40,000 bases of DNA from Myxacorys californica WJT36-NPBG1 (GCA_019359315.1 JAHHHO010000021.1:18078-58077), one strand, 5' to 3'. Numbered from the stretch's first letter, positions 1 to 30,366 are shown. The notes: generated by a model from the sequence alone, not told the origin. Numbers and translations are program-made.

Positions 1-1
1 T

Positions 2-706: not shown

Positions 707-796
707 TAAAGTCTTTAGACTGTCTGGGTAGTGCGGTAGTCTTCGACCCAATCTCACTTCTCAAAGGGAACCTGATAAACAATGGTAGGTCATGCT

Positions 797-2930: not shown

Positions 2931-3018
2931 ACCCGCCCCAACCATCGGTATCCCACTCACAACACGCTGTTTTGCCTTCGGTACTGACGGTTTTGGGACT
3001 CAATACTGGTCAATGCTT

Positions 3019-3387: not shown

Positions 3388-3426
3388 GAGTGGCAGAAGA
3401 GGGCGATCTCTTCTGTCAACATGCTC

Positions 3427-5634: not shown

Positions 5635-6182
5635 GACAGTTGCATCGCCTGTTCAAAATGTTGCACACAGATTTGTCGTAGCTCGGCGATACTCCGTTCA
5701 TCATGGCAGTAGGTATATAATTCAGCGTTTTGATTAACTCCGCCATCAGTCAGGTTCAAAGAGCCATCGAGCCCACCATAACGACCCACGTAAGCTTTGG
5801 CATGCAATGTAGATAGAACCCGCACTTGAATGCGATCGCTGCGACTAGCCAGCAGTTTCAACGCAGAGTGATAATCTGTATCGCTGCCAACGGTAATGTA
5901 GATTCTTCCACCGTTTGCCGAGATTTGATGGAGTACGTCAAACAAGTGCAGCGAATCCTGCTTAGTCTCCACAACCTCCTGGAATGAGACATAGTAGGGA
6001 TTAGCTAGCCGGAAGTTTGTAACCCAAGGCGCAACAATCCAAAATTCATAGTCACCTCCCAGCTGAGAGGCAAGCACCTCGTTCAGCAGGAAGTTGTAAA
6101 TCATTGCTTGACCACTACGTTGTAGGGTCGATCGCTTTGCCATAGGATAGACCTCACTCAATAGGACGTACAGTAACTTCAA
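5631..6182 (-). CDS. PLD-superfamily (Nuc/DrmC/DpdK-like) nuclease
   Basis: Single HKD-type motif 'LHAKAYVGRYGGLDGSLNLTDGG' (HxK ... GSxN). The likely true start is ATG at 6143 ('MAKRSTLQ'), 10 nt after the helicase stop at 6154-6156 and preceded by GAGG. Confidence 0.7.
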   Translation of the reverse strand: MKLLYVLLSEVYPMAKRSTLQRSGQAMIYNFLLNEVLASQLGGDYEFWIVAPWVTNFRLANPYYVSFQEVVETKQDSLHLFDVLHQISANGGRIYITVGSDTDYHSALKLLASRSDRIQVRVLSTLHAKAYVGRYGGLDGSLNLTDGGVNQNAELYTYCHDERSIAELRQICVQHFEQAMQLS

Positions 6183-11142: not shown

Positions 11143-11275
11143 AGAATCATTTATATTAATGCAGCGATTTGGATAACATCAAAATCAGGATATTTATACA
11201 TGAGCATTGAAATTTCAAGATTAGAGTTGTCTGACTTAAAGAAGTTAAAACACCCTCGACAAATAATGCGATCAG

Positions 11276-14582: not shown

Positions 14583-14623
14583 TGCTCAGATTTTTGAAGG
14601 GGCTGCTATTTTTTGGCTTTGCT

Positions 14624-14860
14624 CTAACTAATCTCTCGTCTACCCATTCGTTTACGAGATTTCTTTCGGTGCTCTAATAACTCATCTAGTAATTCAGATT
14701 GCTTATCAAGCTCCTCCCAGTCCCTAATGAAGCGTTTTAGAGCAACGTTGACCATGTCTTGGGTCGTGGGAGCAGCACTTTGATACTGCTGTTCCAGAGG
14801 CAGCCTAATTTTGCGTAATGTTTCATAAAGGTCATCCGGCACACGGACTGTTGATGGCAA
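14624..14860 (-). CDS. Small ribbon-helix-helix (CopG/Arc-like) DNA-binding protein, first gene of the minus-strand operon
   Basis: 78 aa with a TTG start. The N-terminal 'STVRVPDDLYETLRKI...' has the strand-helix pattern of RHH proteins, followed by a basic tail. It sits next to the divergent promoter region. Confidence 0.45.
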   Translation of the reverse strand: MPSTVRVPDDLYETLRKIRLPLEQQYQSAAPTTQDMVNVALKRFIRDWEELDKQSELLDELLEHRKKSRKRMGRREIS

Positions 14861-14979
14861 GGGGAAGTTACCTGAGTTAGGGACTTCCGCATTTTATTCG
14901 TCTTGACAAAAGCTTTGCTACCATGTATGCAAGCATACAGGTTTGGAAATATAGTATTTTACTTTGAGAGGAAAATTGC
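14861..14979. promoter_or_regulatory. Divergent promoter region between the RHH-UvrD-nuclease operon and the DGQHR-UvrD operon, with a 7-2-7 palindrome
   Basis: Perfect inverted repeat TGTATGC-AA-GCATACA at 14924-14939. TTGACA at 14903-14908 sits 17 nt upstream of TATGCA (plus strand). TATAGT at about 14950-14955. TAAAAT on the minus strand at 14891-14896. GAGAGGAAA lies just upstream of the ATG at 14980. Confidence 0.35.
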
Positions 14980-16074
14980 ATGGAGCTTGTACTCCCCGCT
15001 GTAGCAGTTCGACGCGGTCCCGAAGGGAATCAAATCAGTTACGTAGCGAGCTTTACATTTGGTGACATTGCTCGGTTACTAGATGATGGACGGCTGTACG
15101 TGCCGAACCAACCTGACCTACCTGACTTTGCTCAACGGAAACCGAATCCTGTTCGGATTAAAGCGATCGCCCAATACATCCTGGAAACCTACAGGGAAGG
15201 CACAACCTTCTTCCCTCCAATCTGCGTCAACGTACAACCACCGCCAACCTATCGAAACGGAAACGTCTACTTGCCTTATCACTCAGTAACGTTGCGCTTG
15301 ACTGACGGGCAACACCGTTGCTTTGGCATACGCCAAGCCATCCAGGACATTCAAACCCAAGATCTCATGAACCTTGGAATGCTCTCAAACCTGGAGTTGG
15401 GTGCTTTACTCTACTCTGGGCTACGTCTTGACTTGGAGCGTCAGGCATTCCGGGATCAAAACTTACTAGCACAAAGGCCAGGAACCTCTTTAGCCTATTT
15501 GTTCGACAAGCGATCGCCTAGTGTCCTAATTGCGAAGAGCTTAATGGAGCGAGTTGCTCAGTTTCAGGGCAACGTCGAAACCATTGAAAACGGGTTAGGT
15601 CAGCACAATCCCAAGCTAATGACCCTGTCTACATTAGTTATGGCAACACAGCATATGTTTCCAAACTTACGGTCAAAAAAGGATTTAGAAGAACGTACCG
15701 ACTGGGCTGTAGCATTCTGGATCGCTGCAGGAAGCAACTTCTTCAATGAACTCTGGGCACTAACAAGTGTGCAGGAGCGCAAACGTCAGCGTGAGCAGTC
15801 GGTAGCTGTGAGTGCTATCGTATTTCAGGCATTAGGCTTATTGGCACGGGATTTGTATCTGGAGGGAGTTTCAGGGGAAGATCTGCACAAGTGGTTAGTG
15901 AAACTAGGTGAGATAGACTGGCGACGCGAGAACAATTTCTGGTTAGAGCGAGGAGTGACGCAGGTAGGGGCACAGGGCAACCCAATTTTGCCTAACACGA
16001 GAACTACTATTGATGCTTGTCATCGTGTACTTCGTGAATTTGTAGGCATCATTCCACTTTCCTCCACTTGTTAG
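14980..16074 (+). CDS. dpdB: DGQHR-domain protein (DpdB/DndB-like, ParB/Srx-fold)
   Basis: Exact DGQHR signature in 'VTLRLTDGQHRCFGIRQAI'. At 364 aa it matches DpdB/DndB in size. The symbol is tentative. Confidence 0.7.
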   Translation: MELVLPAVAVRRGPEGNQISYVASFTFGDIARLLDDGRLYVPNQPDLPDFAQRKPNPVRIKAIAQYILETYREGTTFFPPICVNVQPPPTYRNGNVYLPYHSVTLRLTDGQHRCFGIRQAIQDIQTQDLMNLGMLSNLELGALLYSGLRLDLERQAFRDQNLLAQRPGTSLAYLFDKRSPSVLIAKSLMERVAQFQGNVETIENGLGQHNPKLMTLSTLVMATQHMFPNLRSKKDLEERTDWAVAFWIAAGSNFFNELWALTSVQERKRQREQSVAVSAIVFQALGLLARDLYLEGVSGEDLHKWLVKLGEIDWRRENNFWLERGVTQVGAQGNPILPNTRTTIDACHRVLREFVGIIPLSSTC

Positions 16075-16104
16075 CCTAATCGCAACTAGAAAGATTCCTT
16101 ATTT

Positions 16105-18339
16105 TTGCTACTGGGATCTGTTATCTCACACCTGATAAAGGGAATTCTACTAGTAAAGTGTTTTGCTAGGAATATTGTGATGCCTGAAGCTACTGATGTT
16201 CGTAAACTTGCCAGAGCTTGCATTACAAGAATCTCAAAGACGCTTATAGCCGAGCGAAGGGAACGGATCCTACCAGAATTTAGGTTAGATAGTTTTCAAC
16301 AGCGCGTGGTTGATTCACAAGCCAGGTTCATGCGCGTAGTTGCACCTGCTGGCTCTGGCAAAACACGCACTCTAATTGCTAAAGCGATTAACGTTCTCGA
16401 TGCCAACGACAATTCTCGTGTTCTTTGTCTAACCTTCACAAATGCAGCCGCGAATGAGTTTCGAGAGCGGGCTAGTAAACTACATACCTCTTTGGCAAAT
16501 CGTTTACAAGTATCAACTTTGAATGCTTTTGGTTACGACACGCTTAAAGTTACAAATGAATCTTTAAAAGTTGTTTCCCCAAGCAACAAAATTATTGGAG
16601 TTGCTTACGGAGTAATAAAGAAACTCATGCCTGAAAGTTCTATTTGGGGGGGTGAGACTCAACCTCAGTTCTATGCTCCAATATTAGAACTTGCTGATAT
16701 GACGAAAAGCCTTGGCTTTGATCACCTAGCTGATAGGAGCGAGGCTCAGGAACAGTACAGTTTTGTAGAAGCACTCGATATGGTGCCACTTCTGCAAAAT
16801 CTGATGGCAGAAATTGGAATTGAAGATAGCCCCAAGACTGCATTCACTAGCACATGGTTTCCCTTTTGGAAGAAGCTAACTGAGAAGCTTTGGAAATCAA
16901 ATTTAATCACGCTTGATGATCAAAAATATTGGGCACTAAATAGGCTTGCAAATCACGGTGGCACACAACAATGGCTATGTGGCAAAAGATTTTCCCACAT
17001 TTTAGTTGATGAGTTCCAAGATATTAATATCCTAGATCTTTTTCTTATTTCGCAAATTGCCCTGGTTACAGAAGCTTCACTGATTATTGTAGGAGATGAC
17101 GATCAATGCATCTACGAATGGCGCGGTTGTACTTCGTTATTCATTCAGCGTCCGGATCTCTTTTTCGAGTCAGTCTTAGGAGACCAAGAATTTGAAACTG
17201 TGTTACTCAAACGAAACTATCGGTGTCCCCACAATATCGTAATTCACTCAAAGCATCTCATTAATACTAATCAAGATCGAATTGAAAAAGACACAGTACC
17301 TATGCGTGAGGATGATGCCGACATTCGTATTATTCCTCTGCCAGCAGCTTACATGACTATGAATGTTGTTGATGAACTTGCCGCTTTTTTAGCTGACAAA
17401 CACCCTCAACACACAGTAGCTATTGTCGGACGCAAGAAATGCCAACTCATACCTATACAAATTTTGTTAACTCGACGGGGTACAAAATTCGCGATCGATA
17501 CTGATCTAAACGTCTTTGGCGGCAAAGCTTTTCAAGATTTCCGAAAGTTTATGGAGTTTCCTAAAATATACACTCAAGCTAGACAAACCTCAAAAAATGT
17601 TGAAGATCTTTTGGCGTTACTAAATAGAATTAAGAAAACACCCGTAAGCAAACAGGAAAATCAAGAAATCCATAAATGGTTAAGCGAGAAGAAGCCTAAG
17701 ACACTTCAAGAAGCAGTAATAAAGTTTAGTGAATATCCTGGAAAGTTTAAGAGAGGATTTGTTCAACCAAAAGAAGTTACTTCTGATTTAATATTCTTTC
17801 TTGAAAGTACTTCTGTTGTGGCATCCTTGTACCGAGCTGGCGATGTGTTCAAGGGATTTCAGAAAGATTTTGTGAAATCAAAGGAAGATATTTTTTACTC
17901 TGATCCTCCGTTTAGTCATCTTGCTGATTTAGCTGTTAACTACGACAATGATTTTGATGCATTTTTAAGTGACATAGATCGTGCAATTGAGAGAGCTGCT
18001 GGTGCTGATCCTCGCGGCGCTAAAATCGAACTTATGACTGCTCTTCGAACTAAGGGTAGGGAATTCGACACAGTTATTGTTCTCGATGTTAATGATGGTA
18101 TTTGGCCTAATAAGAAGTCTCAAGAAGAAGGACGGCTAGAAGAAGAACGCCGCTTATTTTACGTTACTGTTACACGCACTAAGAATAATCTTTTACTTTT
18201 TGAGAGTGGTAGAGTTCAGGGACAACGTATGGCAGCTTCACCCTTTATCCAGGAAATGGCACTCCCCACTAGTGCTTGGCTGTCTGATCCTCAGTTAGAG
18301 AGACTTTCACATGAGCTTTTAGCACAGTTAAAGATATAA
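16105..18339 (+). CDS. UvrD/Rep-type SF1 helicase (copy 2)
   Basis: 'VVAPAGSGKTRTLIAK', 'ILVDEFQDINILD', 'IVGDDDQCIYEWRG', 'RNYRCPHNIV', 'MTALRTKGREFDTVIVL', 'RLFYVTVTRTKNNLLLF'. The likely real start is ATG at 16180 ('MPEATDV'). Confidence 0.85.
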   Translation: MLLGSVISHLIKGILLVKCFARNIVMPEATDVRKLARACITRISKTLIAERRERILPEFRLDSFQQRVVDSQARFMRVVAPAGSGKTRTLIAKAINVLDANDNSRVLCLTFTNAAANEFRERASKLHTSLANRLQVSTLNAFGYDTLKVTNESLKVVSPSNKIIGVAYGVIKKLMPESSIWGGETQPQFYAPILELADMTKSLGFDHLADRSEAQEQYSFVEALDMVPLLQNLMAEIGIEDSPKTAFTSTWFPFWKKLTEKLWKSNLITLDDQKYWALNRLANHGGTQQWLCGKRFSHILVDEFQDINILDLFLISQIALVTEASLIIVGDDDQCIYEWRGCTSLFIQRPDLFFESVLGDQEFETVLLKRNYRCPHNIVIHSKHLINTNQDRIEKDTVPMREDDADIRIIPLPAAYMTMNVVDELAAFLADKHPQHTVAIVGRKKCQLIPIQILLTRRGTKFAIDTDLNVFGGKAFQDFRKFMEFPKIYTQARQTSKNVEDLLALLNRIKKTPVSKQENQEIHKWLSEKKPKTLQEAVIKFSEYPGKFKRGFVQPKEVTSDLIFFLESTSVVASLYRAGDVFKGFQKDFVKSKEDIFYSDPPFSHLADLAVNYDNDFDAFLSDIDRAIERAAGADPRGAKIELMTALRTKGREFDTVIVLDVNDGIWPNKKSQEEGRLEEERRLFYVTVTRTKNNLLLFESGRVQGQRMAASPFIQEMALPTSAWLSDPQLERLSHELLAQLKI

Positions 18340-18391
18340 ACATACCACCATCCCCTACTTGTAGATAAGCTTGAGTATAACTAGTAATCAA

Positions 18392-19309
18392 CTAACTAAT
18401 TGAAGAGCTAACGACCTCCTGAAGAGCATTTCGATGTCCAAATCTTTGGTAGTCGTAGCGGGCATCCCACCAAAGCCAGTTAGTTGAATCTGCCCAAACG
18501 TTATGCTTTTTAAGTACTTCAAGGCGAGTGAGGGCCAGTCCTCCCAGTACGAGGTCGGGACGGCTCCAAGTGAGGAGATCGTCAAGTTGCTCATTAGAAA
18601 GCCCAAATTTTAAGCCGGTTGGCATACTGGGATCTGACTTGAGCAGGCCACCAAGGGCAATGTATTGGTAGCCGATGTTGCGATATTCACTGATGAGCGA
18701 TGATAAAAAGCTTCGAGGGGAGTTGTAGTGAGGAGGCAGTGCATCTTTCTGAGGAATGGGTTGACGGTTTTGCCACTTATAGAGGGCATCACCCACCTGC
18801 ACTACTCCAATTAGCTTGAATTCTCTAGGTCTCTGAGAGTATTCCTGCCATGCCAGACGGGCTAAGTGTAAAGATAGTAAAGGTTCACCAAATACATCAG
18901 GAGCAAGAACATAATCAGGGGAGACTTCTATGCACTGAGCAAAAAAGTTCTTAATGTTCTGCATCAATTTTTCTCTGCCAGCTAAAGCTTCTCCATGCAC
19001 CCAACGCCCATTTTTGTATTCTGCGTAATTTTCCACATACCAGGTAGAGCCTCTCTTCTCAAAAACATCACTGTCTAAGAAAAAGGGCTTCCCTGTGTCG
19101 CGGACACTTCTAAGAAAGTTTTTTGAACAAGATGAAAGAGGAGCCAGAATCCCAAATTCACCATCTATCTCCTTAGCTTTTCTTAATAAACCAAACCAAT
19201 CCATAGCTAAAACAGGAAAAAATTCCCTTTCATCGACAAGACAGACTAGTATGGCGTGCCACAATATGTCAGGTAGCGAAATGTACCATAGCAAGAGAAA
19301 ATTACACAT
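18392..19309 (-). CDS. Divergent TGT/DpdA-like transglycosylase paralogue (no C-terminal zinc Cys cluster)
   Basis: Its motifs are colinear with the two other TGT-like genes. These are 'FFLDSDVF' (vs DSGAH / DCGAF), 'LIGVVQVGD' (vs WGVVQGWD / MGVAQGWN) and 'YIALGGL' (vs YLAIAG / YVALGGL). The last is 'NVWADSTNW' (vs TSFDSSTW / TSFDSASP). An alternative start is ATG at 19204 ('MDWFGLL'). Confidence 0.55.
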   Translation of the reverse strand: MCNFLLLWYISLPDILWHAILVCLVDEREFFPVLAMDWFGLLRKAKEIDGEFGILAPLSSCSKNFLRSVRDTGKPFFLDSDVFEKRGSTWYVENYAEYKNGRWVHGEALAGREKLMQNIKNFFAQCIEVSPDYVLAPDVFGEPLLSLHLARLAWQEYSQRPREFKLIGVVQVGDALYKWQNRQPIPQKDALPPHYNSPRSFLSSLISEYRNIGYQYIALGGLLKSDPSMPTGLKFGLSNEQLDDLLTWSRPDLVLGGLALTRLEVLKKHNVWADSTNWLWWDARYDYQRFGHRNALQEVVSSSIS

Positions 19310-19327
19310 CGTTCCTGTTATACATAT

Positions 19328-20509
19328 ATGAGGGAAGAGGATGTTCTTCTAAAAACACATAGTTTTCTTAAGGCGCAAGGATTAAACGGGCAGTCTATAG
19401 TTCGTCTTTATACTGATGCGCATCATACCTTGTTGAAGAATCAAAAACTTCAACCGTTCCAAAGATTCACATTAAACATGGGAGACTTTGTACTTCATCC
19501 AGATTTAGTGGGTCAATTAGATGATGGTGAGTCGATATTTGCTCTAGAGGCTAAAGGGGCTGTCGGTACTAGTGAGTTAGTAAGGGGGCTAGCACAAGCT
19601 GAGCTATATCAGTCAGGATTCCACTATTCATTTTTAGCTACAGTAGTAAATGGTTTAGGAGAAAACTTACTGCAATTCGCTCGCCGTAAAAATATAGGAG
19701 TTATTGCAGTGAGCGAGGATGTAAAAATTTTAAATTTTCCAGAAGCACAGATGCCGTTTCGGAAAATCTTCCAAAGTATCGCACGGCAGATGGAAACGGT
19801 TATTCAGATTACAGAACAGCAAACTTTTCAGTATAATGCTCCCACTCATTATATGGTCTGGTCAGTAATATTAGAGCCACATATTGAATATGAAATAAGT
19901 GGAATTTCTAAGCTTCTAGAAAATTACCCTATACCCGAAGGCAAAAATAAAGATGGTTGGAAAGCGACCTTAGCAGGAGCAAGGAAATTAGGAATCGTCA
20001 ATCGTTCGGGAAATTTAATTAAGTTAACACCTATTGGTGAAGCTATTAAAGATATTCTAAGAACAAATTTAGATGAATGGATAGATGTACATGAAAAGGC
20101 TGGAGGTAAGAGAAGAAAGTACTATCTATTTGAGTATAAACCTCAAGCGGCTGCCTGTCTTCGCTTATTGCTTCTTCAAGAGCCAATACTCAATCTAGTA
20201 ATAGAGGGGCTGAAAAAATTTCCAAACTTTTCAACTACCTTTTCTGAGCTGGCAGTAGTCTGTGATGGGCTAGATCATGCTAGAGCACCTATTTTCTTCC
20301 TTAAACCAGAGGCTCTGGAATCATTAATCGATAGTAATGGACATATTGATTGGGATAAAACTGAGCCTAGAAATTATCGGGGTAGGATGTTCTTTCAATA
20401 CAAAAGAATTCTCCAACATGCTGGAGTCATAAAGCCTGATGTTTTAGGTGGTAGTAGCGTCAAAGAATATGAGAAAAATATAAGCAGAGACATTTGGACA
20501 TTAATTTGA
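19328..20509 (+). CDS. Protein with an N-terminal PD-(D/E)XK nuclease-like motif and a possible C-terminal winged helix
   Basis: 'FVLHPDLVGQLDDGESIFALEAKG' gives a PD...ExK arrangement. 'ARKLGIVNRSGNLIKLTPIGEAI' is wHTH-like. Its 3' end overlaps the next TGT-like gene by 16 nt. Confidence 0.45.
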   Translation: MREEDVLLKTHSFLKAQGLNGQSIVRLYTDAHHTLLKNQKLQPFQRFTLNMGDFVLHPDLVGQLDDGESIFALEAKGAVGTSELVRGLAQAELYQSGFHYSFLATVVNGLGENLLQFARRKNIGVIAVSEDVKILNFPEAQMPFRKIFQSIARQMETVIQITEQQTFQYNAPTHYMVWSVILEPHIEYEISGISKLLENYPIPEGKNKDGWKATLAGARKLGIVNRSGNLIKLTPIGEAIKDILRTNLDEWIDVHEKAGGKRRKYYLFEYKPQAAACLRLLLLQEPILNLVIEGLKKFPNFSTTFSELAVVCDGLDHARAPIFFLKPEALESLIDSNGHIDWDKTEPRNYRGRMFFQYKRILQHAGVIKPDVLGGSSVKEYEKNISRDIWTLI

Positions 20510-21498
20510 AGCCTTTATATTTTCTTCCATGGTGGCCATCTGACTATATTTGGAAGGAGTGGAACACTTCATTTGATATGGGTAGGATGACCGGATGGAC
20601 GAAGACATATTTGTGGGAAGTACTACCTAATCTAATTGATGGAATTGTTGTGTCTCGAATGGCTGTTTCTCTGAGACAAATCAAGTTACTTCGGCAAAAA
20701 CTTCGCTTTACCGGAGTAATTTTAGGAGACTCTGGAGCGCATTCTTATCGAAATTATGAGCACCCCCCATTTTCATGTGAAGATGTCTTAGAGTTTTATG
20801 CTCAGGGAGATTTTACCTATGGTTTAACCGTTGATATGGTTGCTTCTCCTTGGGTGCGTCCAGGAGGTTTGTCAGACGACGAATTGCAGAGTAGATTAGC
20901 GCTAACCATCAATAATGCTGAACGCTGTTTAGAGCTACATGAAAGGTATAATTATCCATTTACTTTATGGGGGGTTGTACAAGGTTGGGATGTCACAAGC
21001 TATCGATCGTGTGCTAAAGCTTTGCTCAAACTTGGGTTTACTTATTTGGCGATCGCGGGTCAACGGAAGCTCTCTTTAATCAGGGATGCAATAGATGCTG
21101 TTTCAGAAGAAGCACATCAACTTGGCAAGAAGATAAACATTCATGTATTAGGAACAGGAAATCCTAAAATTCTTGAGTTCTATATCCAAAAAGGCATTAC
21201 TTCATTTGATTCATCAACCTGGTTACGTAAAGCTTGGCTGAGTGAAAAGCATAATTACTTTCTTGTAACCGGAAAACATTATGATGCTTATCGAGCAACA
21301 AGAGTTGGATTAGGGGAATTTGATGTAAACAAGTTGAAATGGGATATAGAAATCAACTGCTCTTGCTATTTCTGTCGGAGTCTAGGACAACAAATTCTAT
21401 TATTTAGAGGACATGAAAGAAATACTCGAAGAGGGTTCCATAATATCTGCCAGTATGTTCAATTGCTCAAAGCACACCGGAAAGATGCTTTAGTCTAG
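20494..21498 (+). CDS. TGT/DpdA-like transglycosylase paralogue (short form, with Zn Cys cluster)
   Basis: 'LYFLPWW' (cf. 'YYIPEWDD' of the fusion protein), 'VILGDSGAHSY', 'WGVVQGWD', 'YLAIAGQ', 'GITSFDSSTWLRKAW', and the C-terminal 'CSCYFCRS...RGHERNTRRGFHN' (CxCxxC...H). Confidence 0.65.
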   Translation: MDINLKPLYFLPWWPSDYIWKEWNTSFDMGRMTGWTKTYLWEVLPNLIDGIVVSRMAVSLRQIKLLRQKLRFTGVILGDSGAHSYRNYEHPPFSCEDVLEFYAQGDFTYGLTVDMVASPWVRPGGLSDDELQSRLALTINNAERCLELHERYNYPFTLWGVVQGWDVTSYRSCAKALLKLGFTYLAIAGQRKLSLIRDAIDAVSEEAHQLGKKINIHVLGTGNPKILEFYIQKGITSFDSSTWLRKAWLSEKHNYFLVTGKHYDAYRATRVGLGEFDVNKLKWDIEINCSCYFCRSLGQQILLFRGHERNTRRGFHNICQYVQLLKAHRKDALV

Positions 21499-23554
21499 AC
21501 AGTTGTTCAGAACCTTGGTCAAGGTTCTCTTCTAGAAGAGCTTTGAACCGCTTATAGAAAACATAGGTATTGTGAAAACCTCGCCTACGGTTGCGATCGT
21601 TATTTCTAAAAATGACTGTTTCAATGCCCAATTCTTGACATATTAGGCACTTACATGAATTCCAAGGCTTTTCTTTAAGTATTTCTAGATAGAAAGGTTC
21701 AAGATCTATAGACTTCTTTGAATCAGTTTTGTTTTCTTGCTCTTCGATCAGCTTGCTGTAGGTCAGTACTGTTTTTAGTGTGGTTTCCAAATCCAGTGTT
21801 CCTACATCAAATTGTCTTAAAGCGTCCAGTGCTTCTTGTTCATATCTCTTAAAAGTTTCTAAATCGACAGAACCACTTTCAAGAGCACGCTTTATTTTTA
21901 ATCCTCGCTCTGTTGGGGGGACTCTGATAGCCATGAAAGTTTTGCTCGATAGAGTGTGATAGTTTTTTGTACCAGATAACCATGCTTGTCTCAGTGGACT
22001 TGCTGAGTCAAAACTCGTAACTCCCAAATGCCGAAATACTGGAATTGCCTCAATCCGAGCAACCCCAAACAAATGCAACCGCACATTTGGTTTGAGATGG
22101 GGAGAAATTGCCTTCAGGATTGGTACAATCTCCTTTGTTTGTGCACGAGCTAATCCACCTAGTGCCACATAGTCATATCCCATGCCAATTACTTCTTTCA
22201 CAGCATTGGCATAGGACTCTGGGTTCCACCCTTGAGCCACACCCATTGGAGTAAACGTATATCCTAATTCTCGATGCTTCTTGATAAAGTCTTCAGCATT
22301 CTTCAGCGTAATTTCGTACCGTTTTTCCCGTTCGCCTGGTTGAGCAAAGGGACCCACAATCAGATGGTCAATACTCACTCCATAGTTAAATCCCAAATTT
22401 TCGTAATACTCTAAAATTTCATCGGTATTGTATGGGGGCACTTCTTCCTTGATGTAACCAAATGCTCCACAATCTCCCATGATTTGCCCCGGAAACCGGA
22501 TGAAATTGTGGATTCCACCTGCTGCTTCCACCCGTGCCCGTTTTGTTTTGCTCTCATCAACCACGACTTTAGAGACTAAAATTCCGTCGTAGTTCGGTGA
22601 TGGATAAATCTCGTGAGCATAGATGTCATTATAGGGATCTCGACCTGGCGTGAGAGTATCGGTAAGAAAGCCATAGTTTGGATCTACGCGATCGTCCCAC
22701 TCTGGAATGTAATATTGCATTCCCAAGTGAACATTAGGTGCTGGCGGGCAGGGAGGAATGGCTAAATAGTCCTCCGTTTGGGGCTTAATAACTTGTTTAG
22801 AAGCCTTTTTAGCCGAAGGGATGGACAACCCCAATGTCAACTCTAACTGGGTCTCCTGCTGGTCGATCACTTTCTGAAAGACAGTTGGCTCCTCATAAAC
22901 CGTTTTTAATAATTCAGCGTCCTTACAGACTGCTTCTGCAAATCGTTTGAACAGAAATCCCTTTAACCCAACCAACCCATAGCGATAACGTTTTGCATCA
23001 GTATTGGACAACGGCAATATAAAAGTCTTCGCTGCTAAAGTCCTGATAAATCGAGTACTACTGTTAGATGCCAAAAATACTAACGTCTGGTCTGGTCTGG
23101 TTTCGACAGGCAGTGTCAGCGATCGTAGATAGTTCTCTCCTAGCAGTAAGAAAATGAGGTTATAAGGGGTGATCGCTTTCTCAAACGTACTATGCAAGTC
23201 GAGGGATCGTGCCCAATCATCTACTTCATTTACCCTCATGTTATTGAAGGTGACCTCATAAGGCGCGATCGCCCAGTTCTCCTCAATTAGCCCATACCCT
23301 GCTGACAAAATCGCGACATCAACTGCATCTTGCCCTAAAGCCTGGCGCAACAGTTGCACACCCTCCATCAGTCGAAGGTGCTGCATCCCTGTGTACATTT
23401 TTCCAGCGGTACAAAGAAACTCAGCCAATTCTGCTTCCCGTCGCTGAAGATGTTCAGGATCTTTGAAGTCTGCTAGGGTCAGTTGATTCTCAGGCTTAGC
23501 ACATTTTTCTCCAGTGCAGGATGTAACAACAAGAACACTAGGGTGGGGCATCAA
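21467..23554 (-). CDS. dpdA: DUF6884-like N-terminal domain fused to a DpdA-type DNA-guanine transglycosylase
   Basis: 695 aa. The N-terminus has '[11 protein letters not shown]...MYTGMQH...[22 protein letters not shown]', a DUF6884-like pattern. The C-terminal ~420 aa have '[16 protein letters not shown]', '[10 protein letters not shown]', 'MGVAQGWN', 'YVALGGLA', '[15 protein letters not shown]' and 'CKCLICQE...[13 protein letters not shown]'. Its start overlaps the queC stop by 4 nt (23551-23554). Confidence 0.75.
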
Positions 23555-23825: not shown

Positions 23826-23973
23826 CCCTCATTTGTCACTCTCGCTAAAGCGAATTCTGAAACCTAGGCTTGGGGCGAGTTTCCTATTTTGAGGGCTCGA
23901 AAATGACAAAAGAGCAAAACGGAGATGCAGCAATGCTTTCAGCTTTTGCTCCTGCCAGAGTGACAAATGAGGG
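23826..23973. mobile_element. 148-bp MITE with perfect 17-bp terminal inverted repeats, inserted in queC
   Basis: TIRs are CCCTCATTTGTCACTCT (23826-23842) and AGAGTGACAAATGAGGG (23957-23973). They are flanked by the direct repeat TTAG (23822-23825 and 23974-23977), which fits the YTAR target duplication of IS5-group elements. No ORF inside. Confidence 0.8.
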
Positions 23974-24219
23974 TTAGAAGCATTTCCTTCTAGTCCAGCT
24001 TTGGAAGAGAGAGTGGCAAGGTGCTGAACAGCGTCCAGATACTCTGGTCGGCAGTCAGGATAGCCGGAGTAGTCCACTGCATTGATCCCCAGATAAATTG
24101 CTTCGGCTCCTTTGGCTTCTGCTAGGGAGAGAGCGATCGCCAGAAAGACTGTATTCCGTCCTGGTACATAGGTAATGGAAATGACACCAGGTTTAGCACC
24201 GTTAGTAGGCACGTCTATA

Positions 24220-24380
24220 AAACCCATTTGGGATCTTTTCCCGTGATACTTGGCTTTGAAGGAAGCCGTTACTCTGCGATCAATGGTAGAGCCTTCCTAG
24301 CAAAACCGTTTTCTGCCAAAAAATGAAGAAAACCAGCTAGCTGCAAGGCTTGTGATTTCAGGATTAGATCCCAAATGGGT
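24220..24380. mobile_element. ~161-bp MITE (different family) inserted in queC
   Basis: Inverted repeat CTATAAAACCCATTTGGGATCT (24215-24236) vs AGATCCCAAATGGGTTCTATAG (24366-24387), 21/22. The direct repeat TCTATA at 24214-24219 and 24381-24386 is the likely target duplication; its exact boundary is ambiguous because it overlaps the TIR. Removing 167 nt restores the queC frame. Confidence 0.7.
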
Positions 24381-24632
24381 TCTATAGCCTGGTCAGTGAG
24401 AGCAGAACCACCCCACTGCGCCAAATTCACATCTACCACAAAATGTTCCTTGATCCCCAAATGCTCAGCCACCCGCTTAGCAGCAATGAGTTCGCGATCG
24501 TGCCTTTGTCCGTAGTGGAGCGACAGGGCAATCAATTCGTAACCATCGGTGATCGCTTGAGCAGCAGAGGTTGATGAATCCAGACCACCAGACAATAAAA
24601 CAATGGCTTTGGAAGCACTCATAGGTTCACTC

Positions 24633-25272
24633 TTATCGAATATTGGTGAATTTGTAGGTTTGTAAACTGATCCGCCATTCTGGATGGCTGAGAACGTACT
24701 CAAAGATGGGTGAGTAGCTATCAGATGTACCCCATTCTGGTTGGAGAAGCCTGACTGCATCGGTTGGAATTTTGGTCGCGTAATCCTCCGCCCATACCAA
24801 GTCAGACTGGTTAGCAATTACAACCTTTAGTTCACTTACCTGTGGATAAATGCTTTCGTGCGGAGGCTCGGACTGTAGGGCAGAAGGTAATCCAGTCGAA
24901 GCTGCCACTGAAGGGGTGTGCTCCAGAGGTTCCTAGATGCACTCGCAGTCCTGCGACTCTTAACCCCCCATTGCTGAGGGAGGAAAGGTCATGCATCAGG
25001 GGTTCGCCACCCGTAATGACAACGATCGCTAGATTGACCGCTTTAGCTTCTGCAATTAGGTCGGCAGTAGGACGTTGAGGATGGCGACGAGCATTCCACG
25101 AATGCTTGGTGTCGCAGTAGGGGCAGCCTACGTCACATCCGGCTAGTCGAATAAAAAAGGCGTTCGTGCCTGTCCAGGCTCCCTCACTCTGAACCGAGTG
25201 GAAGGTTTCCACCACTGGCAGGACTGTCAAAGCTGTTTTAGAGGTTGAGGGAATGGGAATCAGGCTTGTCAT
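24633..25272 (-). pseudogene. queE: 7-carboxy-7-deazaguanine synthase (radical SAM) gene carrying a frameshift
   Basis: ORF 24832-25272 has 'FIRLAGCDVGCPYCDTKHSW', 'VVITGGEP' and 'GSFDWITFCPT'. ORF 24633-24908, in another frame, continues with '[19 protein letters not shown]...LLQPEWGTS...[13 protein letters not shown]'. Together they make a normal-length QueE. The frames differ by one extra nucleotide at about 24870-24890. Confidence 0.8.
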
Positions 25273-25283
25273 AACGATCGCTC

Positions 25284-25673
25284 CTAGTCGTCCTCGTACT
25301 CAACCCAAGAATTGGGCGTTTCGGACACAGCAACCTTCAACTTCACATCCGACAGCAATTGCTTCTTCGTCTTGTCGTAAATATATTGAGCAATCATCTC
25401 GGCAGTGGTTCCATAGCCTTCCGGCAGAACTTCGTTTAGAACCGAATGGTCGAGCCCTCCTTTGAGTAGGTCTTGCTTTGCCCAACGGAGCGTGCGGAAA
25501 TCAGCAACCATGACAGGATGAGGACAGTACTCGGAGGCATAGAGCTTATTAGAGGTTGCCTCAATTCGAACCTTATAGGTATGCCCATGCATCCGCCCAC
25601 ACGGACCGTTGTAGTCCCGGATGTAGTGAGCAGCATCAAAAGTAAACTCAGTGGTCAGTTTCCAGGTTGGCAT
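25284..25673 (-). CDS. queD: 6-carboxy-5,6,7,8-tetrahydropterin synthase
   Basis: 129 aa. 'FTFDAAHYI...GPCGRMHGHTYKVRIE' and 'LDHSVLNEV' are characteristic QueD/PTPS motifs. The ORF is intact. Confidence 0.85.
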   Translation of the reverse strand: MPTWKLTTEFTFDAAHYIRDYNGPCGRMHGHTYKVRIEATSNKLYASEYCPHPVMVADFRTLRWAKQDLLKGGLDHSVLNEVLPEGYGTTAEMIAQYIYDKTKKQLLSDVKLKVAVSETPNSWVEYEDD

Positions 25674-25812: not shown

Positions 25813-27762
25813 CTAGTTTGGTTCCCCAACAGATAGAGAATCACTGTACATCTCGTAAATCTGAATTTCGATCTCGCTTGCCACGTTCTTCGAATAGTCA
25901 GGTTTTAACCCTGCTAACCTCACTACCTTCCACGGTTCAACTCGTTCACCCCGTTGATTGAGCACTTTTGCTGCCCACCTCACCCGTCGAATCTGGTAAT
26001 CCTCAAGGCTCTCTGTCACTGAATTCAAATAAGCCTGCATCATAGGCATCTGGTCAAGATGTTGTTCGATCAGTGCCAGTTGACCGATCACCTTCGCTAC
26101 TCTGCTTACGGTAATTCGGATCGGTTTCTCTTCTGCCAGTAATCCCTGTACGGCTTCCTTCACCTGAGCTAGAATTTGCTCGTCCCGTTGCTGCCAGTCT
26201 ACTCGGTTGTTGATGTAAACAGACTTCTGGACTGGGGGTGAATGCTGGTTGAGCCATTCGCGATCGTACCGATAGAGCCAAGAATAGGTGCTGGGAGCGA
26301 ATCGGCGGAGGGCTGTTTTGGAAGCGTGGGGGTACTGGGTCTGAAGGATGCTCCACGTATTCCGGTGTTGGGTTCTTAGGCTATCAGACTCACCAGATTG
26401 AGCACAGAGAAGTTCTATGGAATCTGATTCCTGCATTTTGGTCTGAGATCTCCACTTTGGAGAAAGTTCGAACCGTTGGACATAGCGATTGACCGTTCTG
26501 GGATCAACCTGAAGCTGTTTGGCAGTTTCTCGCAATCCCAGTTGTTCAACTTCTACCAGTTGCCTCAATTTCTGCTGCCATACCGGACCCACCGCTTTGA
26601 TTTTACCAATGCGACAGGCATCCGCTTCGGTCTGGTCGGGTCCAGTCCGACAGTAGATAAAGCCACAGGAGCAGGAAAAGGTTCCCACAGGCTTTTTTGT
26701 GTCGCCGCATAAGCTAATTGACAGATCCGTAACAACAGATTTTAGATAATGCTCTGCGGCAGCATTCAAGCACAACCACGGTCCTACCCCAAAGGGCTTG
26801 TAACCGTGATCGCCTCCTAACAGTTCTGCAACGGAGAGTCCCAAAAATCGAATCATCAACAGATGCCGAATAGGATGAAAGACTTTTCGGTGCTTCCGGC
26901 CAATGCTGAACAGCCAGTTTTGATCATCCTGGCCATGAACGGTTGAATCTAACGCCTGCAAAATTTCCTGGTTATAGGCAGATAAAAACTGTTTGATCAA
27001 CGAGCCTTGATGCACTCGTCCTGTCGCGGTTGCCAATCCCCGTTCAATCAGCACAGACACGTATTGCTTGCGAAACCAGTTCAAGTCCTGGGAAGGTAAC
27101 TCATTCTCTAGTAAAAAATAGGCAACCTGAGCCAAACACTTGAGGACGTTTAAGGCATGCTGGCCGAATATTTTTTCAGGTGGATGGATGCAACAGTTAT
27201 CAATCCCGGCAGCAATATATTCATGCCGGTTCATGCCTTGAAGCGGGACTGAACTATCCTGAAGAACTTCGGCATGATGAGGGCAAACTAGAGCTCCTGG
27301 GGCTTGATGGATGCGATGCCAATACAACTCGCCGTACTTCGCTTGGTCGTCGCTGCTGCACATCGGGCAAAATCGGAAGTACTTGGGGACACGGATCGAA
27401 CTAGCTCGAATCCCGACCTGGTTATGAATACCTCCTCCTTTCTCAGAGCGCATTGCCTCAAGAATTTGTTGCGATCGATCCTGCGGAAGAAAGGGAGCAT
27501 AGAAGGGATACAACGTATGGTTCTGAATCAATTTCTCGACGGTCATCTGCGAAATTAATTCCAGCTTTGCAGCTAAAGACTCTAAGTTACAGGGAAGGTC
27601 AGCAGTGGCGATCACATTCCTGGAATCAAATAACTCCTGCATTGCGAGTTTTGGACTGGTATGACCACTGCGCAGGTGATAGCGAGCCAGGATGCTGTAG
27701 AGCAGTTCGTCTGGGTACGGCTTGGGAAAGAAGCTCAACTGTGAGTACATCTGTAAAGTCAA
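25813..27762 (-). CDS. tnsD: Tn7 TnsD-like target-selector protein (TniQ family), full length
   Basis: Colinear with Tn7 TnsD. It has 'FFPKPYPDELLYSILARY', 'HTLYPFYAPF', the CCCH finger 'FRFCPMCSS...YWHRIHQAPGALVCPHH' and 'RKHRKVFHPIRH'. It also has 'YSWLYRYDREWL', 'RVDWQQRDEQI' and 'LEDYQIRRVRWAA'. Confidence 0.85.
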   Translation of the reverse strand: MTLQMYSQLSFFPKPYPDELLYSILARYHLRSGHTSPKLAMQELFDSRNVIATADLPCNLESLAAKLELISQMTVEKLIQNHTLYPFYAPFLPQDRSQQILEAMRSEKGGGIHNQVGIRASSIRVPKYFRFCPMCSSDDQAKYGELYWHRIHQAPGALVCPHHAEVLQDSSVPLQGMNRHEYIAAGIDNCCIHPPEKIFGQHALNVLKCLAQVAYFLLENELPSQDLNWFRKQYVSVLIERGLATATGRVHQGSLIKQFLSAYNQEILQALDSTVHGQDDQNWLFSIGRKHRKVFHPIRHLLMIRFLGLSVAELLGGDHGYKPFGVGPWLCLNAAAEHYLKSVVTDLSISLCGDTKKPVGTFSCSCGFIYCRTGPDQTEADACRIGKIKAVGPVWQQKLRQLVEVEQLGLRETAKQLQVDPRTVNRYVQRFELSPKWRSQTKMQESDSIELLCAQSGESDSLRTQHRNTWSILQTQYPHASKTALRRFAPSTYSWLYRYDREWLNQHSPPVQKSVYINNRVDWQQRDEQILAQVKEAVQGLLAEEKPIRITVSRVAKVIGQLALIEQHLDQMPMMQAYLNSVTESLEDYQIRRVRWAAKVLNQRGERVEPWKVVRLAGLKPDYSKNVASEIEIQIYEMYSDSLSVGEPN

Positions 27763-27811
27763 ACAATTTTGTAGCTTGATGGGACAAGCAGCTATTTGCC
27801 CTCGCTCAACC

Positions 27812-28495
27812 TCAGTCCTGCAACGAGGGTTGGTACACCTGTACGGCTAGAACCAACAAAGTCTCCTTAGCCTGCGCGATTAATGCGTCTGATACACCCA
27901 CGGTCGCTATTAGAATCGTCCCATCATCGTCCAGAAGCAGGCTGAAGGGTTCTATCGAGACTTGATAGGGAAACCATTGTCCCTGCACTGCATAGACCTG
28001 TCTCACGCCTTCCAGGTCAAGCGCAAATTCCTCAGCCAAGGGAACAACGATCAAAGACTCGATCGCATTTTGCAGTCCAACTTGCACAATTTCCAAGGGA
28101 ATCGCAGCCCCATCAGTAATTTTCTCCCGATTGGCCACTCGTTCTGACTGGCGAGACAACGCAAGCTGTTTGCTCAATTCACTCACTTCTTTAGCCGCAA
28201 ACTTGAGCCCCTTTCGGACGCCTGGCAAGTAGGGGGTGAAATCAAAGCTCAGCCCTGTTTGAGCACCCCATTGGTCGAGCTTGTCCTGGGCGCTTTCCAG
28301 CACCTGTTCCAAAAGGACGGACTCGTGTTCCCATTGCATCTGAGCCCGCTGCCGCATCAGGACTCGCGCTAACTCTGCAATCCCAAATTCAATCCCCAAA
28401 CTATAGGGCTCCCCCTCCTGCTCCATGAGAAACCCAGCCTGCTCTGCCACGCAGTTCAGAATAAACCGCTCCTGGGACAATACCTGGACGCTCAT
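27812..28495 (-). CDS. Hypothetical protein (227 aa), translationally coupled to the upstream small nuclease-like gene
   Basis: An uninterrupted ORF with an ATG start. It overlaps the upstream gene stop by 4 nt (28492-28495). I see no recognisable motif and no Walker A. Confidence 0.5.
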   Translation of the reverse strand: MSVQVLSQERFILNCVAEQAGFLMEQEGEPYSLGIEFGIAELARVLMRQRAQMQWEHESVLLEQVLESAQDKLDQWGAQTGLSFDFTPYLPGVRKGLKFAAKEVSELSKQLALSRQSERVANREKITDGAAIPLEIVQVGLQNAIESLIVVPLAEEFALDLEGVRQVYAVQGQWFPYQVSIEPFSLLLDDDGTILIATVGVSDALIAQAKETLLVLAVQVYQPSLQD

Positions 28496-28962
28496 ACACT
28501 CACCTCGGTGATGGAACAGTGATACTGCGTTTCACTCAGCAATGCGGTTCCCACAACCATTCCGGTTACGGGTCTGGAATCCAGTTCAAAGCAAGCAGAG
28601 GTGTAGGCGGACATACGAATCAGTTCGTCTTCGATCACCTGCTGTATTTGGGCCACAGAACCTGTCGTTGCCTTGGCTTCCACCAGATAGGTTTTGCCCT
28701 GCCCTCGCATGACAATATCGGGGTAATCATGATTTGGACGCGCCAGCTTGCGGCATCGAAACAACTGCTGGGCAACCAGCCCTGCAATTCCCTCTCCAAT
28801 TCCTGCAATTGCGCTCTTGCTAGGCGTGATGAGACGGTGTTCCGTGCGGCTGTAGAACAAGGGGGCATAGCCAGGCTCCAGGAAAGCGCCACTGGTGTAG
28901 GTGAAGTAGTGCTGCATCTCCTCCTGGGGACGATAATGTAGAGTAATAAAACGGTTGAACAA
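28492..28962 (-). CDS. Small PD-(D/E)XK-like (restriction-endonuclease / TnsA-N-like fold) protein
   Basis: 'IGEGIAG...HDYPDIVMRGQGKTYLVEAKATTG' gives an E...PD...ExK arrangement. The TTG at 28962 lies inside a repeat. ATG at 28917 ('MQHYF'), preceded by AGGAGGAG, is a plausible alternative start. Confidence 0.45.
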   Translation of the reverse strand: MFNRFITLHYRPQEEMQHYFTYTSGAFLEPGYAPLFYSRTEHRLITPSKSAIAGIGEGIAGLVAQQLFRCRKLARPNHDYPDIVMRGQGKTYLVEAKATTGSVAQIQQVIEDELIRMSAYTSACFELDSRPVTGMVVGTALLSETQYHCSITEVSV

Positions 28963-29089
28963 TTTGGTCGTCTGAAAAGTTCATTAATTCGTTCCATTTT
29001 TGAATAGCAGAAAAAAATGGTTGGACAATTTACTCTGCTTTCAGCTGGTTCTTGCCCTATTTCTGTAATAAAACGGTTGGACAATTTCT
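28943..29089 (-). repeat. Three direct copies of a ~23-nt motif upstream of, or overlapping, the small nuclease-like gene (transposase-binding-site-like or operator array)
   Basis: Plus-strand copies: GTAATAAAACGGTTGAACAATTT (28943-28965) and GTAATAAAACGGTTGGACAATTT (29065-29087) match 22/23. A degenerate copy is AAAAAAATGGTTGGACAATTT (29011-31). Thirteen nt beyond the outer copy the minus strand reads 5'-TGTGG (29104-29100). Confidence 0.6.
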
Positions 29090-29166
29090 AAAAGCTTTAC
29101 CACAGCTTGGTTTGAGAACTTCTTAAAGGAGGAAATTTTAGAGAACGAATTGAAGATTACGTTGAG

Positions 29167-29430
29167 TCACAGGCAGATAACCTCCTGAAGAACTTGTTCA
29201 CCAATGTGAGGTTTCAACCCGTCTTTCATGACCAAATCTACTTTCAGTTGTAAGAAGTCGCTGAAGTAGTTCTCCAGTTCACAAAATGCGATCGCATAAA
29301 CGAGTGCTTCCACAGGCTGGGTCGATCGCAGCGCCTCTGAAGTAATCACCAGTTGCTCGACACTTTGGCGAATTTTCACACCGACGCTGGCATCAATAAA
29401 CTGGTTAGCAACTTCACTGAGTCCTCCCAA
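29167..29430 (-). CDS. Hypothetical small protein (87 aa, TTG start)
   Basis: ORF only, with no recognisable motif. It is bounded upstream by an in-frame TAA. It lies between the IS5 element and the repeat array. Confidence 0.25.
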   Translation of the reverse strand: MGGLSEVANQFIDASVGVKIRQSVEQLVITSEALRSTQPVEALVYAIAFCELENYFSDFLQLKVDLVMKDGLKPHIGEQVLQEVICL

Positions 29431-29462: not shown

Positions 29463-30366
29463 TAAGAGGACGTTTGAGAAGTAGCAGATTATACTCATTT
29501 GCTAGAATGGTAAGGATGAATCGAAAACCTTATGATACTGATGTCTCTGATGCTGAATGGATAATCCTTGAACCACTCATTCCATCATCTCAACCCGGTG
29601 GACGTCCACGTTTTAGAGACAGGCGCGAAATTGTAAATGCAGTTTTCTATATTCAGCGTTCTGGCTGTGCTTGGCGCTTACTGCCACATGAGTTTCCCCC
29701 CTGGCAAACCGTGTATTACTACTTTCGCACTTGGCGCATTGCGGGTGTGTGGAAAACTCTACTCAAAACCATTCGCGAGCAGGTGTGTCAAGCCATGGGA
29801 CGAGCCGCAACACCTAGTGCTGGAATCATCAATGCCCAATCGGTCGAAACGACGAAAGCTGGCGGAACAGAACGCGGTTATGACGGGGGTAAAAAAGTCA
29901 AAGGGCGCAAGCGTCACCTGTTGGTCGATACCCAAAGATTGGTCCTGAAGGTCAAGGTACTTGCAGCTAACACAGCAGATCAAGAAGGTGCCAAACAACT
30001 GCTCAGTGGCATTGGGGCGCAGTTTCCTCGATTGCGATATCTGTGGGTCGATGGTGGCACCACGTTTGTCAGTTGGGTCAAAGAGCAGTTGGGTTGGATG
30101 GTGCAGCGCGTGCAACATCCGAATGCTGGGTCCCATCGTCGCATTGTTGGTCCAGGTGTGGAACCTGCGCCGATTGACCGCAGTTTCAAAGTCATTGAGC
30201 GCAGATGGGTGGTGGAGCGAACGTATGGCTGACTTGGGCGATATCGACGACTGGGCAAAGACTACGAATATCTGCCTGAAACGTCGGAAGCGTTCATCTA
30301 CACTACCTCTCTCCGTACACTCCTACGGCGGCTGGCATAATCTGCTACTTCTCAAACGTCCTCTTA
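29463..30366 (+). mobile_element. IS5-family insertion sequence (~0.9 kb) with perfect 30-bp terminal inverted repeats
   Basis: TAAGAGGACGTTTGAGAAGTAGCAGATTAT (29463-29492) is the exact reverse complement of 30337-30366. The target duplication is ambiguous (possibly TA). One transposase gene lies inside. Confidence 0.85.
29516..30340 (+). pseudogene. IS5-family (DUF4096 + DDE) transposase with an in-frame TGA replacing a conserved Trp
   Basis: 'MNRKPYDTDVSDAEWIILEPLIP...GRPR...REIVNAVFYIQRSGCAWRLLPHEFPPWQTVYYYF' is a typical IS5 N-terminus. The ORF stops at TGA 30230-30232 within 'VVERTYG*LGRYRRLGKDYEYLPETSEAFIY...LRRLA', where family members have 'ER.FGWLGRYRRL'. The same frame stays open to TAA at 30338-30340. 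Confidence 0.75.

Follow-up and report, generated by a model that had tools for sequence, protein, structure and literature searches.

The locus analysed here surrounds a gene for a homologue of TnsD, a target-selecting protein of Tn7-like transposons, in Myxacorys californica WJT36-NPBG1 (GCA_019359315.1). In the following, the window denotes the whole stretch of 40,000 nucleotides (JAHHHO010000021.1:18078-58077), which is part of a contig of 87 kb; loci of relatives used for comparison are designated by L numbers. The window holds parts of two Tn7-like elements: element A, to which tnsD belongs, and element B, whose left end begins at position 28937. Reading leftwards, the visible part of element A consists of a truncated gene m218, the gene m227, tnsD, and the que/Dpd cargo. 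The features on which the argument rests are, in the order of their distance from the left edge:

3427..23554, both strands: Dpd-type 7-deazaguanine DNA-modification/restriction island in the cargo position of A
23829..25673, minus strand: preQ0 genes queD, queE and queC (Pfam PTPS, Radical_SAM and QueC), directly downstream of tnsD
25813..27762, minus strand: tnsD, an intact TniQ-family target selector assigned to the glmS-homing clade of type I-B1 CRISPR-associated transposons (CASTs)
27812..28495, minus strand: m227, 227 amino acids (aa), the downstream member of the m218-m227 pair, 79% identical to the corresponding L006 protein
28492..28936, minus strand: truncated m218 ('m218), codons 70-218, that is the 3' two-thirds of a 218-aa PD-(D/E)XK-like gene
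28937..29087, plus strand: left end of element B, terminal TGTAGAGTAATAAAACGGTTGAACAATTT and three spaced TnsB-type sites

The open reading frame (ORF) of tnsD comprises 649 aa from a TTG start; the gene caller proposed 645 aa from the ATG at 27750, which is probably the true start. A preliminary description of the locus had recognised a 649-aa homologue of Tn7 TnsD with a CCCH finger, and the profile searches confirmed this assignment. Residues 11-165 match the Pfam family TniQ (PF06527, E 2e-31), the TnsD family PF15978 is matched across its full profile (1-355/355, E 1e-122), and PADLOC assigned the model TniQ_IB. A sequence-profile match with E 1e-39 relates the protein to 8glu, the solved N-terminal domain of E. 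coli Tn7 TnsD. The window protein shares with E. coli TnsD the N-terminal TniQ part with its CCCH finger, the C-terminal TnsD domain, and the match to the full Pfam profile; it differs in being a distant relative, whose gene is not located beside tnsABC. In an alignment with 38 relatives, the finger residues C128, C131, C156 and H159 are kept and about 100 further positions are invariant. At 199 of the 212 positions that are conserved to at least 90% in the 38 other sequences, the window TnsD carries the consensus residue. Its conservation is the fourth lowest among the 39 sequences, and three of the 13 deviations concern positions which are invariant in all 38 others. Judged from this alignment, the deviations may hint at a recent loss of constraint. 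By analogy with characterised relatives, the window TnsD would bind the 3' end of glmS and recruit TnsC.

Type I-B1 CASTs are reportedly exemplified by AvCAST of Anabaena variabilis, an element said to have been described by Saito et al. in 2021. The database search yielded 924 TnsD relatives, and the top of the list is overwhelmingly cyanobacterial. Gene contexts were taken from public assemblies and from one genome per species and were scored with reference proteins. A scan of the species-genome contigs with the single TnsD sequence returned no relatives and was repeated with the alignment as query; in the plasmid collection no close TnsD was found, the best match having 44% identity. The closest complete relatives are L004 and L048, whose TnsD proteins are 69% and 71% identical to the window protein. 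Among the cyanobacterial relatives (48-71% identity), the gene order is mostly tnsB-tnsC-tniQ-cas6-cas8-cas7-cas5, followed by a gap of 1.4-9 kb with small genes, by tnsD, and by cargo. In complete relatives the full order, read from the right end, is tnsA-tnsB-tnsC-tniQ-cas6-cas8-cas7-cas5-array-small genes-tnsD-cargo-left end, and the right end is found some 24 bp behind the stop codon of glmS. The cas genes of L004 match Cas6b, Cas8b, Cas7b and Cas5b and its small TniQ matches TniQ_IB; in L048, tnsA is a separate gene which overlaps the start of tnsB. A separate tnsA and a glmS-targeting TnsD are the properties by which type I-B1 CASTs were defined (Hsieh & Peters 2022, PMC9881144). Relatives at 39-46% identity, mostly from Firmicutes, possess the classical order tnsA-tnsB-tnsC-tnsD.

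Wherever the flank suffices, glmS adjoins the right end; this was seen in seven cyanobacterial loci (L026, L028, L034, L038, L039, L050, L091) and in a dozen others, many of them from Firmicutes. In L038, the glmS stop codon is followed by 23-24 bases and then by TGTGGAGGAATAATAAAGTTGGACAATT... with four closely packed repeats. AvCAST inserts in vitro 24 bp after the glmS stop with the right end proximal; its right end has three contiguous TnsB sites and its left end three widely spaced ones (PMC13251919). The glmS-adjoining right ends of the relatives are in agreement with these biochemical data (PMC13251919) and with Hsieh & Peters (PMC9881144). Between AvTnsD and E. coli TnsD the identity is 23%, and the cyanobacterial clade carries an extra zinc finger and a helix-turn-helix (HTH) motif (PMC13251919, preprint). 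By sequence, the window TnsD falls into the glmS-homing clade of the cyanobacterial type I-B1 CASTs; its identity to the TnsDs encoded in I-B1 CAST loci is 50-71%. Further points of agreement with this type are the position of tnsD after the cas genes and before the cargo, as seen in the relatives, the homing of the clade to glmS, and a left end composed of three spaced TnsB sites behind a TGT terminus.

Unlike a type I-B1 CAST, the window is devoid of the remaining machinery. The readable range comprised, out of the 87-kb contig, the 40-kb window and L008, a contig of 11 kb which is 100% identical to the window where they overlap and reaches 3.4 kb past its right edge, to the window-equivalent of 43.4 kb. 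A protein look-up at the left edge retrieved nothing beyond the window, the look-up at the right edge retrieved only L008, and an exact-match scan of metagenome contigs with a 33-mer from the right edge gave nothing. No tnsA, tnsB, tnsC, small tniQ or cas gene was found in the 40 kb by tblastn with the proteins of a complete relative, and profile hidden Markov models of TnsB and TnsC, built from 51 and 57 relatives, gave no further match in the window. In L008, tnsB, tnsC and cas genes were likewise not found. The earlier statement that no tnsA/B/C lies beside TnsD was upheld by both methods in the window and in L008. Searches of the 40-kb window for a tRNA, a CRISPR array, an Rfam match and glmS were each negative. 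A pair of CAST ends is not present: the single end (28937-29087) is a left end that belongs to the neighbouring element, points away from tnsD and has neither a right-end counterpart nor a glmS gene in the window. The window contains neither tnsA/B/C, nor TniQ in combination with Cas6/Cas8/Cas7/Cas5 and an array, nor paired ends.

The position at which element A breaks off can be given to the base. The m218 family consists of 149 members, nearly all of which have a length of 215-225 aa. When the intact 218-aa proteins of L006 and L005 are compared with the window by tblastn, only the part from residue 70 onwards aligns (92% and 90% identity), and the DNA homology to L006 ends at window base 28936. 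The adjoining base 28937 is the first base of a terminal TGT, from which the plus strand reads TGTAGAGTAATAAAACGGTTGAACAATTT. TnsB-type sites are located at 28949-28965, 29015-29031 and 29071-29087. The pattern AAANGGTTGRACAATTT has three zero-mismatch matches, all on the plus strand; elsewhere in the 40 kb the pattern is matched only with 3 mismatches, and the observed count was reached in 0 of 100 shuffles. The terminus TGTAGAG.AATAA...GTTGAACAATTT and the spacing of 65-66 bp recur in left-end orientation in L013 and L030, where the left ends sit 0.5-1.4 kb downstream of tnsD; end motifs were not found in L129 and L130, two short contigs of the nearest relatives. Because terminus and spacing are those of the L013 and L030 left ends, 28937-29087 is a Tn7-like left end of the same family, and its orientation indicates that the interior of B extends toward higher coordinates, away from tnsD. 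The junction and the terminal TGT coincide to the base. Such precision is not expected of a random deletion; the junction was therefore probably made by a transposition reaction of B.

The genes next to the junction have to be read accordingly. A 227-aa gene and a 156-aa PD-(D/E)XK-like gene had been listed upstream of tnsD, and both ORFs exist; the 156-aa ORF (28492-28962), however, is the 5'-truncated 218-aa gene, which takes its first codons from the adjoining transposon end. An ORF of 149 aa (28635-29084) overlapping m218 was discarded as spurious, because it runs across the transposon end. A deletion mediated by an insertion sequence (IS) was considered as cause of the breakpoint and rejected: the IS in question is 500 bp away, lies within B, and its perfect inverted repeats are intact.

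Element A would not be the only member of its clade in such a state. According to our reading of the context table, roughly 10 of about 26 cyanobacterial loci are orphan or partly decayed copies; decayed relatives are L001, L026, L028, L034, L050, L030, L041 and L044. In L001, tnsABC, tniQ, cas6 and half of cas8 are gone, and L030, L041 and L044 consist of an orphan tnsD with no other element genes within 10 kb. L013, from a Microcoleus metagenome-assembled genome, contains two left ends of the same orientation (5705-5865 and 7129-7157), 1.3 kb apart, downstream of one tnsD; it is a stacked-ends relic of successive Tn7-like insertions. The content of the 1.3-kb remnant between the two L013 ends was uninformative. 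The stacked left ends of L013 and the many decayed relatives indicate that such loci erode often. For Tn6022, internal insertions and subsequent deletions have been documented (PMC11014353), and decay of this kind is ordinary for such elements.

The island on the other side of tnsD is of the Dpd type, a 7-deazaguanine DNA modification/restriction system reportedly described by Thiaville et al. in 2016. The claim that a que...dpdA island follows tnsD proved correct: DpdA matches the NCBIfam family NF041059 (E 1.5e-145), the Pfam match of DndB has E 6e-74, and PADLOC reported DpdA as well as DpdC matches, the latter on the N-terminal domain of a fusion protein. This DpdC(DUF6884)-DpdA fusion has 695 aa with DUF6884 at the N-terminus; together with a second, shorter DpdA-like transglycosylase (TGT) it is encoded within 20494-23554. 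Further island genes code for DndB/DpdB, SF1 and SF2 helicases, a PD-(D/E)XK protein, a PLD protein and a TPR protein. The DpdA transglycosylase, DpdB and the DpdC-like modification genes by which a Dpd system is recognised are all present. Common to the window and the known Dpd system is the clustering of DpdA, DpdB (DndB family), a DpdC-like domain, helicases, a PLD protein and preQ0 genes. The window cluster differs in the fusion of the DpdC N-terminal domain to DpdA, in the second DpdA-like paralogue, in the frameshifts of queC and queE, and in its location in the cargo position of a CAST remnant. The same DpdC-DpdA fusion was observed with 53-61% identity on four cyanobacterial plasmids.

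Of the preQ0 genes, queD is intact; queE and queC (23829-25272) are each split over two reading frames. Residues 1-77 and 76-150 of the QueC profile fall on different ORFs and the radical-SAM protein QueE is broken after about 146 aa. Far longer ORFs near queE and queC are intact. Therefore, the cluster's own supply of preQ0 may be pseudogenised, unless the splits are due to assembly or sequencing errors; host copies of queC and queE could act as substitutes.

Several observations speak for the island being cargo. The que and Dpd genes occupy the cargo position and are co-oriented with tnsD at the proximal end. Defence genes are the usual cargo of the relatives and of Tn7-like elements in general, and DndB-family cargo is among them (Benler et al., PMC8649781). 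In L004, the cargo directly after tnsD consists of a NERD-kinase, an MmeI-type enzyme, an MNT-HepT pair and BREX. L071, a classical tnsABCD element by glmS in a metagenome-assembled genome of a Syntrophomonadaceae (Firmicute), carries in the cargo downstream of tnsD a DpdA which is 37% identical (17984-19210); Dpd-type genes therefore ride Tn7-like elements outside cyanobacteria, too.

The gene pair m218-m227 is not confined to elements of the window's type. Of the 33 loci whose downstream sequence is long enough, 31 have an m227-like gene after m218 (our own tally). Genes often found ahead of the pair are a divergent XRE-type HTH gene, m114 (102-114 aa) and m105 (a 105-aa HTH protein). The module XRE-HTH (minus strand), m114, m105, m218, m227 occurs at 8282-13875 in L005 and at 94-4564 in L006. 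The gene immediately downstream of the pair is tnsD in the window and in L006. In L005, L094, L120 and L121 the pair precedes cas12k, in L090 and L098 it accompanies a tnsB-tnsC-tniQ core that has no tnsA, in L091 it is part of the cargo of a glmS-homing Tn7-like element, and in three loci (L089, L103, L111) no Tn7 gene is present within 10 kb of it. In L005, whose protein matches ShCas12k with E 8e-97, a small RHH gene is placed between the pair and cas12k. A 606-aa gene of L090 was tried as a candidate for cas12k and turned out to encode a NACHT NTPase.

Searches of Pfam, NCBIfam, PADLOC, PHROGs and PDB sequence profiles gave no significant match for m218 and m227, m114 is covered by no database family, and viral contigs contained no m218 relatives. 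The AlphaFold model of m218 has a pLDDT of 88; its fold matches in the PDB are weak and are all PD-(D/E)XK nucleases, with TnsA not among the top 50. The invariant residues of the family include P143-D144 and E157-x-K159. For m227, the AlphaFold2 model (pLDDT 83) consists of a helical half and a TBP-like C-terminal sheet, again with weak fold matches. Comparing m218 and m227 by means of hhalign with alignments of TnsA, TnsB and TnsC from the fetched loci gave probabilities of at most 1%. For m218 against 32 TnsA sequences the value was 0.1%, and only the generic PD-x12-ExK motif is shared. Reading the 156-aa ORF as a minimal TnsA was consequently abandoned, given the missing Pfam match, the hhalign value of 0.1% and the absence of TnsA from the top 50 fold matches.

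Based on these findings, we consider it likely that tnsD is the remnant of a CAST-type Tn7-like element that was cut at the left end of B, and that the Dpd island is most likely its stranded cargo. Two histories could have led to this arrangement. Either B would have inserted into m218 of A, so that the rest of A would be found beyond the right end of B, at least 14.5 kb off; or A and B would have come to lie side by side by accretion at the attachment site, and a reaction at the left end of B would next have deleted the right-hand 12-13 kb of A. We lean towards a true deletion of A's core, whereas its location beyond B, more than 14.5 kb away, is quite conceivable. TnsD alone would bind the attachment site and recruit TnsC, and no more. 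As the readable sequence has no TnsABC and no right end, the tnsD-Dpd segment would be unable to move by itself, which would make the Dpd island cargo that is stranded or, at the least, interrupted. The preliminary description had proposed that the island is cargo of a Tn7-like element which lost its core genes. Among the proposals made this is the best supported one, with the lineage now specified as I-B1 CAST and the break placed at 28936/28937; the word "lost" goes too far, as the missing part may lie beyond B. The more specific claim that the segment of 3.4-25.7 kb is Tn7 cargo agrees with its position and orientation; since A's left end was not found, its boundaries are undefined.

A number of points weigh against this reading. 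The missing tnsABC is a statement about the readable part of the 87-kb contig and not about the whole genome. A full-length tnsD argues against an old decay. The G+C content of the Dpd core is 38-41%, compared to 49% for tnsD. On the one inspected of the four plasmids with the fusion, the conjugative plasmid pNOS3756_2 of Nostoc sp. NIES-3756 (L131, 9933-18450), the fusion, the second TGT and helicases occur with no Tn7 genes nearby, so that the linkage of the Dpd module to tnsD could be secondary. Finally, no site cluster which might be element A's own left end was detected left of tnsD, neither in 1-3500 nor in the whole window, and the Dpd island is therefore not shown to lie within the boundaries of A. 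The likely reading contains the sub-case that A is complete and was merely split in m218 by B, which would measure at least 14.5 kb. Beyond B would then follow codons 1-69 of m218, m105, m114, the array, cas, tniQ, tnsCBA and the right end by glmS, and the finding of a TnsD without TnsABC would be an effect of window size. Such a nested insertion would explain why the junction lies exactly on the terminal TGT of B, as a simple insertion would give, and why tnsD is intact; moreover, the sequence from 29088 to the equivalent of 43.4 kb is made up of ORFan, toxin or IS-type material, which could be cargo of B. Target immunity near ends of the own kind, known for Tn7-like elements including CASTs (PMC11014353), argues somewhat against it, since TnsD-bearing relatives have ends of the family to which that of B belongs. 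In addition, the readable 14.5 kb contain no right end, no tns gene and no 5' fragment of m218. We therefore rate this sub-case as possible, if rather unlikely.

The remaining alternatives concern the function of tnsD and of the pair next to it. That TnsD was domesticated, i.e. kept by the host or the island for a role other than transposition, such as a DNA-binding regulator and possibly together with m218 and m227, would account for its full length and conserved zinc-finger residues, for the recurrence of orphan TnsD in cyanobacteria (L030, L041, L044), and for the arrangement of m227 and tnsD, which are co-oriented and about 50-60 bp apart in both the window and L006. Against it stand the 13 deviations of the window protein among 212 highly conserved positions, of which three do not vary in any of the 38 relatives, and the truncation of the presumed partner m218. 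Furthermore, the nearest relatives reside in active-looking CASTs and no conserved synteny was seen among the orphan copies. This idea, which had also been put forward earlier, found no positive support; decayed or orphan copies are common and the conservation of the window TnsD is slightly below that of most relatives, so that we regard domestication as very improbable. Even less credible is the suggestion that m218 and m227 form an unrecognised partner set, i.e. functional substitutes for TnsA/TnsB/TnsC. Its appeal is that in two elements, those of the window and of L006, tnsD is the next gene after the pair, and that m218 has a PD-(D/E)XK-like core in common with TnsA. The hhalign values of at most 1% and the fold matches without TnsA show no relation to TnsA/B/C, and neither protein is predicted to have a DDE transposase or AAA+ ATPase fold; the pair is therefore not a hidden transposase set. 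This is in line with the distribution of the pair. In the complete CAST L004 the cas genes are followed by a small regulator gene, and it is this gene that precedes the pair in L006; the pair also occurs with cas12k in the absence of tnsD and in loci without Tn7 genes. In the window, moreover, m218 is truncated, and we give the suggestion next to no weight. A further proposal is that m218-m227 is a dedicated CAST accessory module instead of passive cargo, and that the insertion of B was even a targeted hit between competing CASTs. In two unrelated CAST types, the pair lies within some 50-250 bp ahead of the gene for the target selector and in the same orientation; this gene is tnsD in I-B1 and cas12k in V-K. 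We consider this proposal improbable, if somewhat less so than domestication; if it were true, the pair could have a regulatory or supporting role in target selection, or its nuclease activity could be directed at transposition intermediates. In either case, a nuclease-like pair by tnsD or cas12k is an uncharacterised candidate for studies of CAST regulation or cargo.

The preferred reading, a CAST remnant cut at the left end of B, has a parallel in the Tn6022/AbaR islands of Acinetobacter (PMC11014353). These, too, display more than one related element per locus, internal or proximal insertions, deletions, and leftover ends. They belong to another Tn7 branch with another attachment site; in the window, the left end of the neighbour joins the inner part of the older element to the base, and the attachment site is out of view. 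The locus is a concrete case in which a CAST can bring a large Dpd-type defence island into a cyanobacterial genome and then be disabled, with a base-resolved breakpoint at the very end of a competing element. Orphan TnsD/TniQ genes are common in cyanobacteria, and the case helps to annotate them as remnants instead of new systems; what is known about the Tn7 mechanism is not changed.

Two further features are located inside B, next to its left end:

29167..29430, minus strand: MNT-type nucleotidyltransferase (antitoxin-like), just inside the left end of B, without HepT partner
29463..30366, plus strand: IS5-family IS of 904 bp inside B with frameshifted transposase (Pfam DUF4096, DDE_Tnp_1)

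The MNT-type gene is 42% identical to the NTP_transf_2 gene of the MNT-HepT pair in the cargo of L004 and has weak PADLOC PDC-S09 matches. The IS5-family IS is flanked by perfect 30-nt inverted repeats at 29463-29492 and 30337-30366. Beyond it, B contains genes without known families up to the window edge, and these continue in L008 to the equivalent of 43.4 kb. At 30450-32297, a 615-aa SLH-domain protein is encoded, the N-terminal half of which is built from tandem repeats of 90 bp and 270 bp with 87% identity (31390-32058); an independent assembly of the same strain breaks in this region. The region 33185-40000 plus L008 1-6320, inside or beyond B, is a run of co-oriented genes with almost no family matches; it starts with a 1280-aa protein with an EndoU nuclease domain, followed by proteins of 291, 265, 189, 312, 758 and more than 285 aa. 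This run could be a toxin or defence cargo block.

Some of the relatives deserve mention in their own right. The loci L026, L028 and L034, all from Nostoc metagenome-assembled genomes (about 1200-10000), are glmS-adjoining I-B CASTs with cas6-cas8-cas7-cas5 and tnsD, all of them without intact tnsB, tnsC and tniQ; L026 retains the right end and fragments of tnsA and tnsB. The recurring internal deletion immobilises the element yet keeps Cascade and TnsD. In L038, a Microcoleus tnsABCD element by glmS, the tnsA ORF of 132 aa (5705-6103) matches the C-terminal domain of TnsA only. The catalytic domain at the N-terminus seems to be absent; in Tn7, such a loss would favour replicative transposition.

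At the left side of the window, the edge of the Dpd island (at about 3400) is marked by an ISL3-family IS (1096-2929) with 50-nt inverted repeats, which match to 88%. Beside it lies a fragment of a WD40-repeat gene with in-frame stops (2930-3390), a pseudogene remnant. A gene for an ImmA/IrrE-type metallopeptidase occupies positions 11-706.

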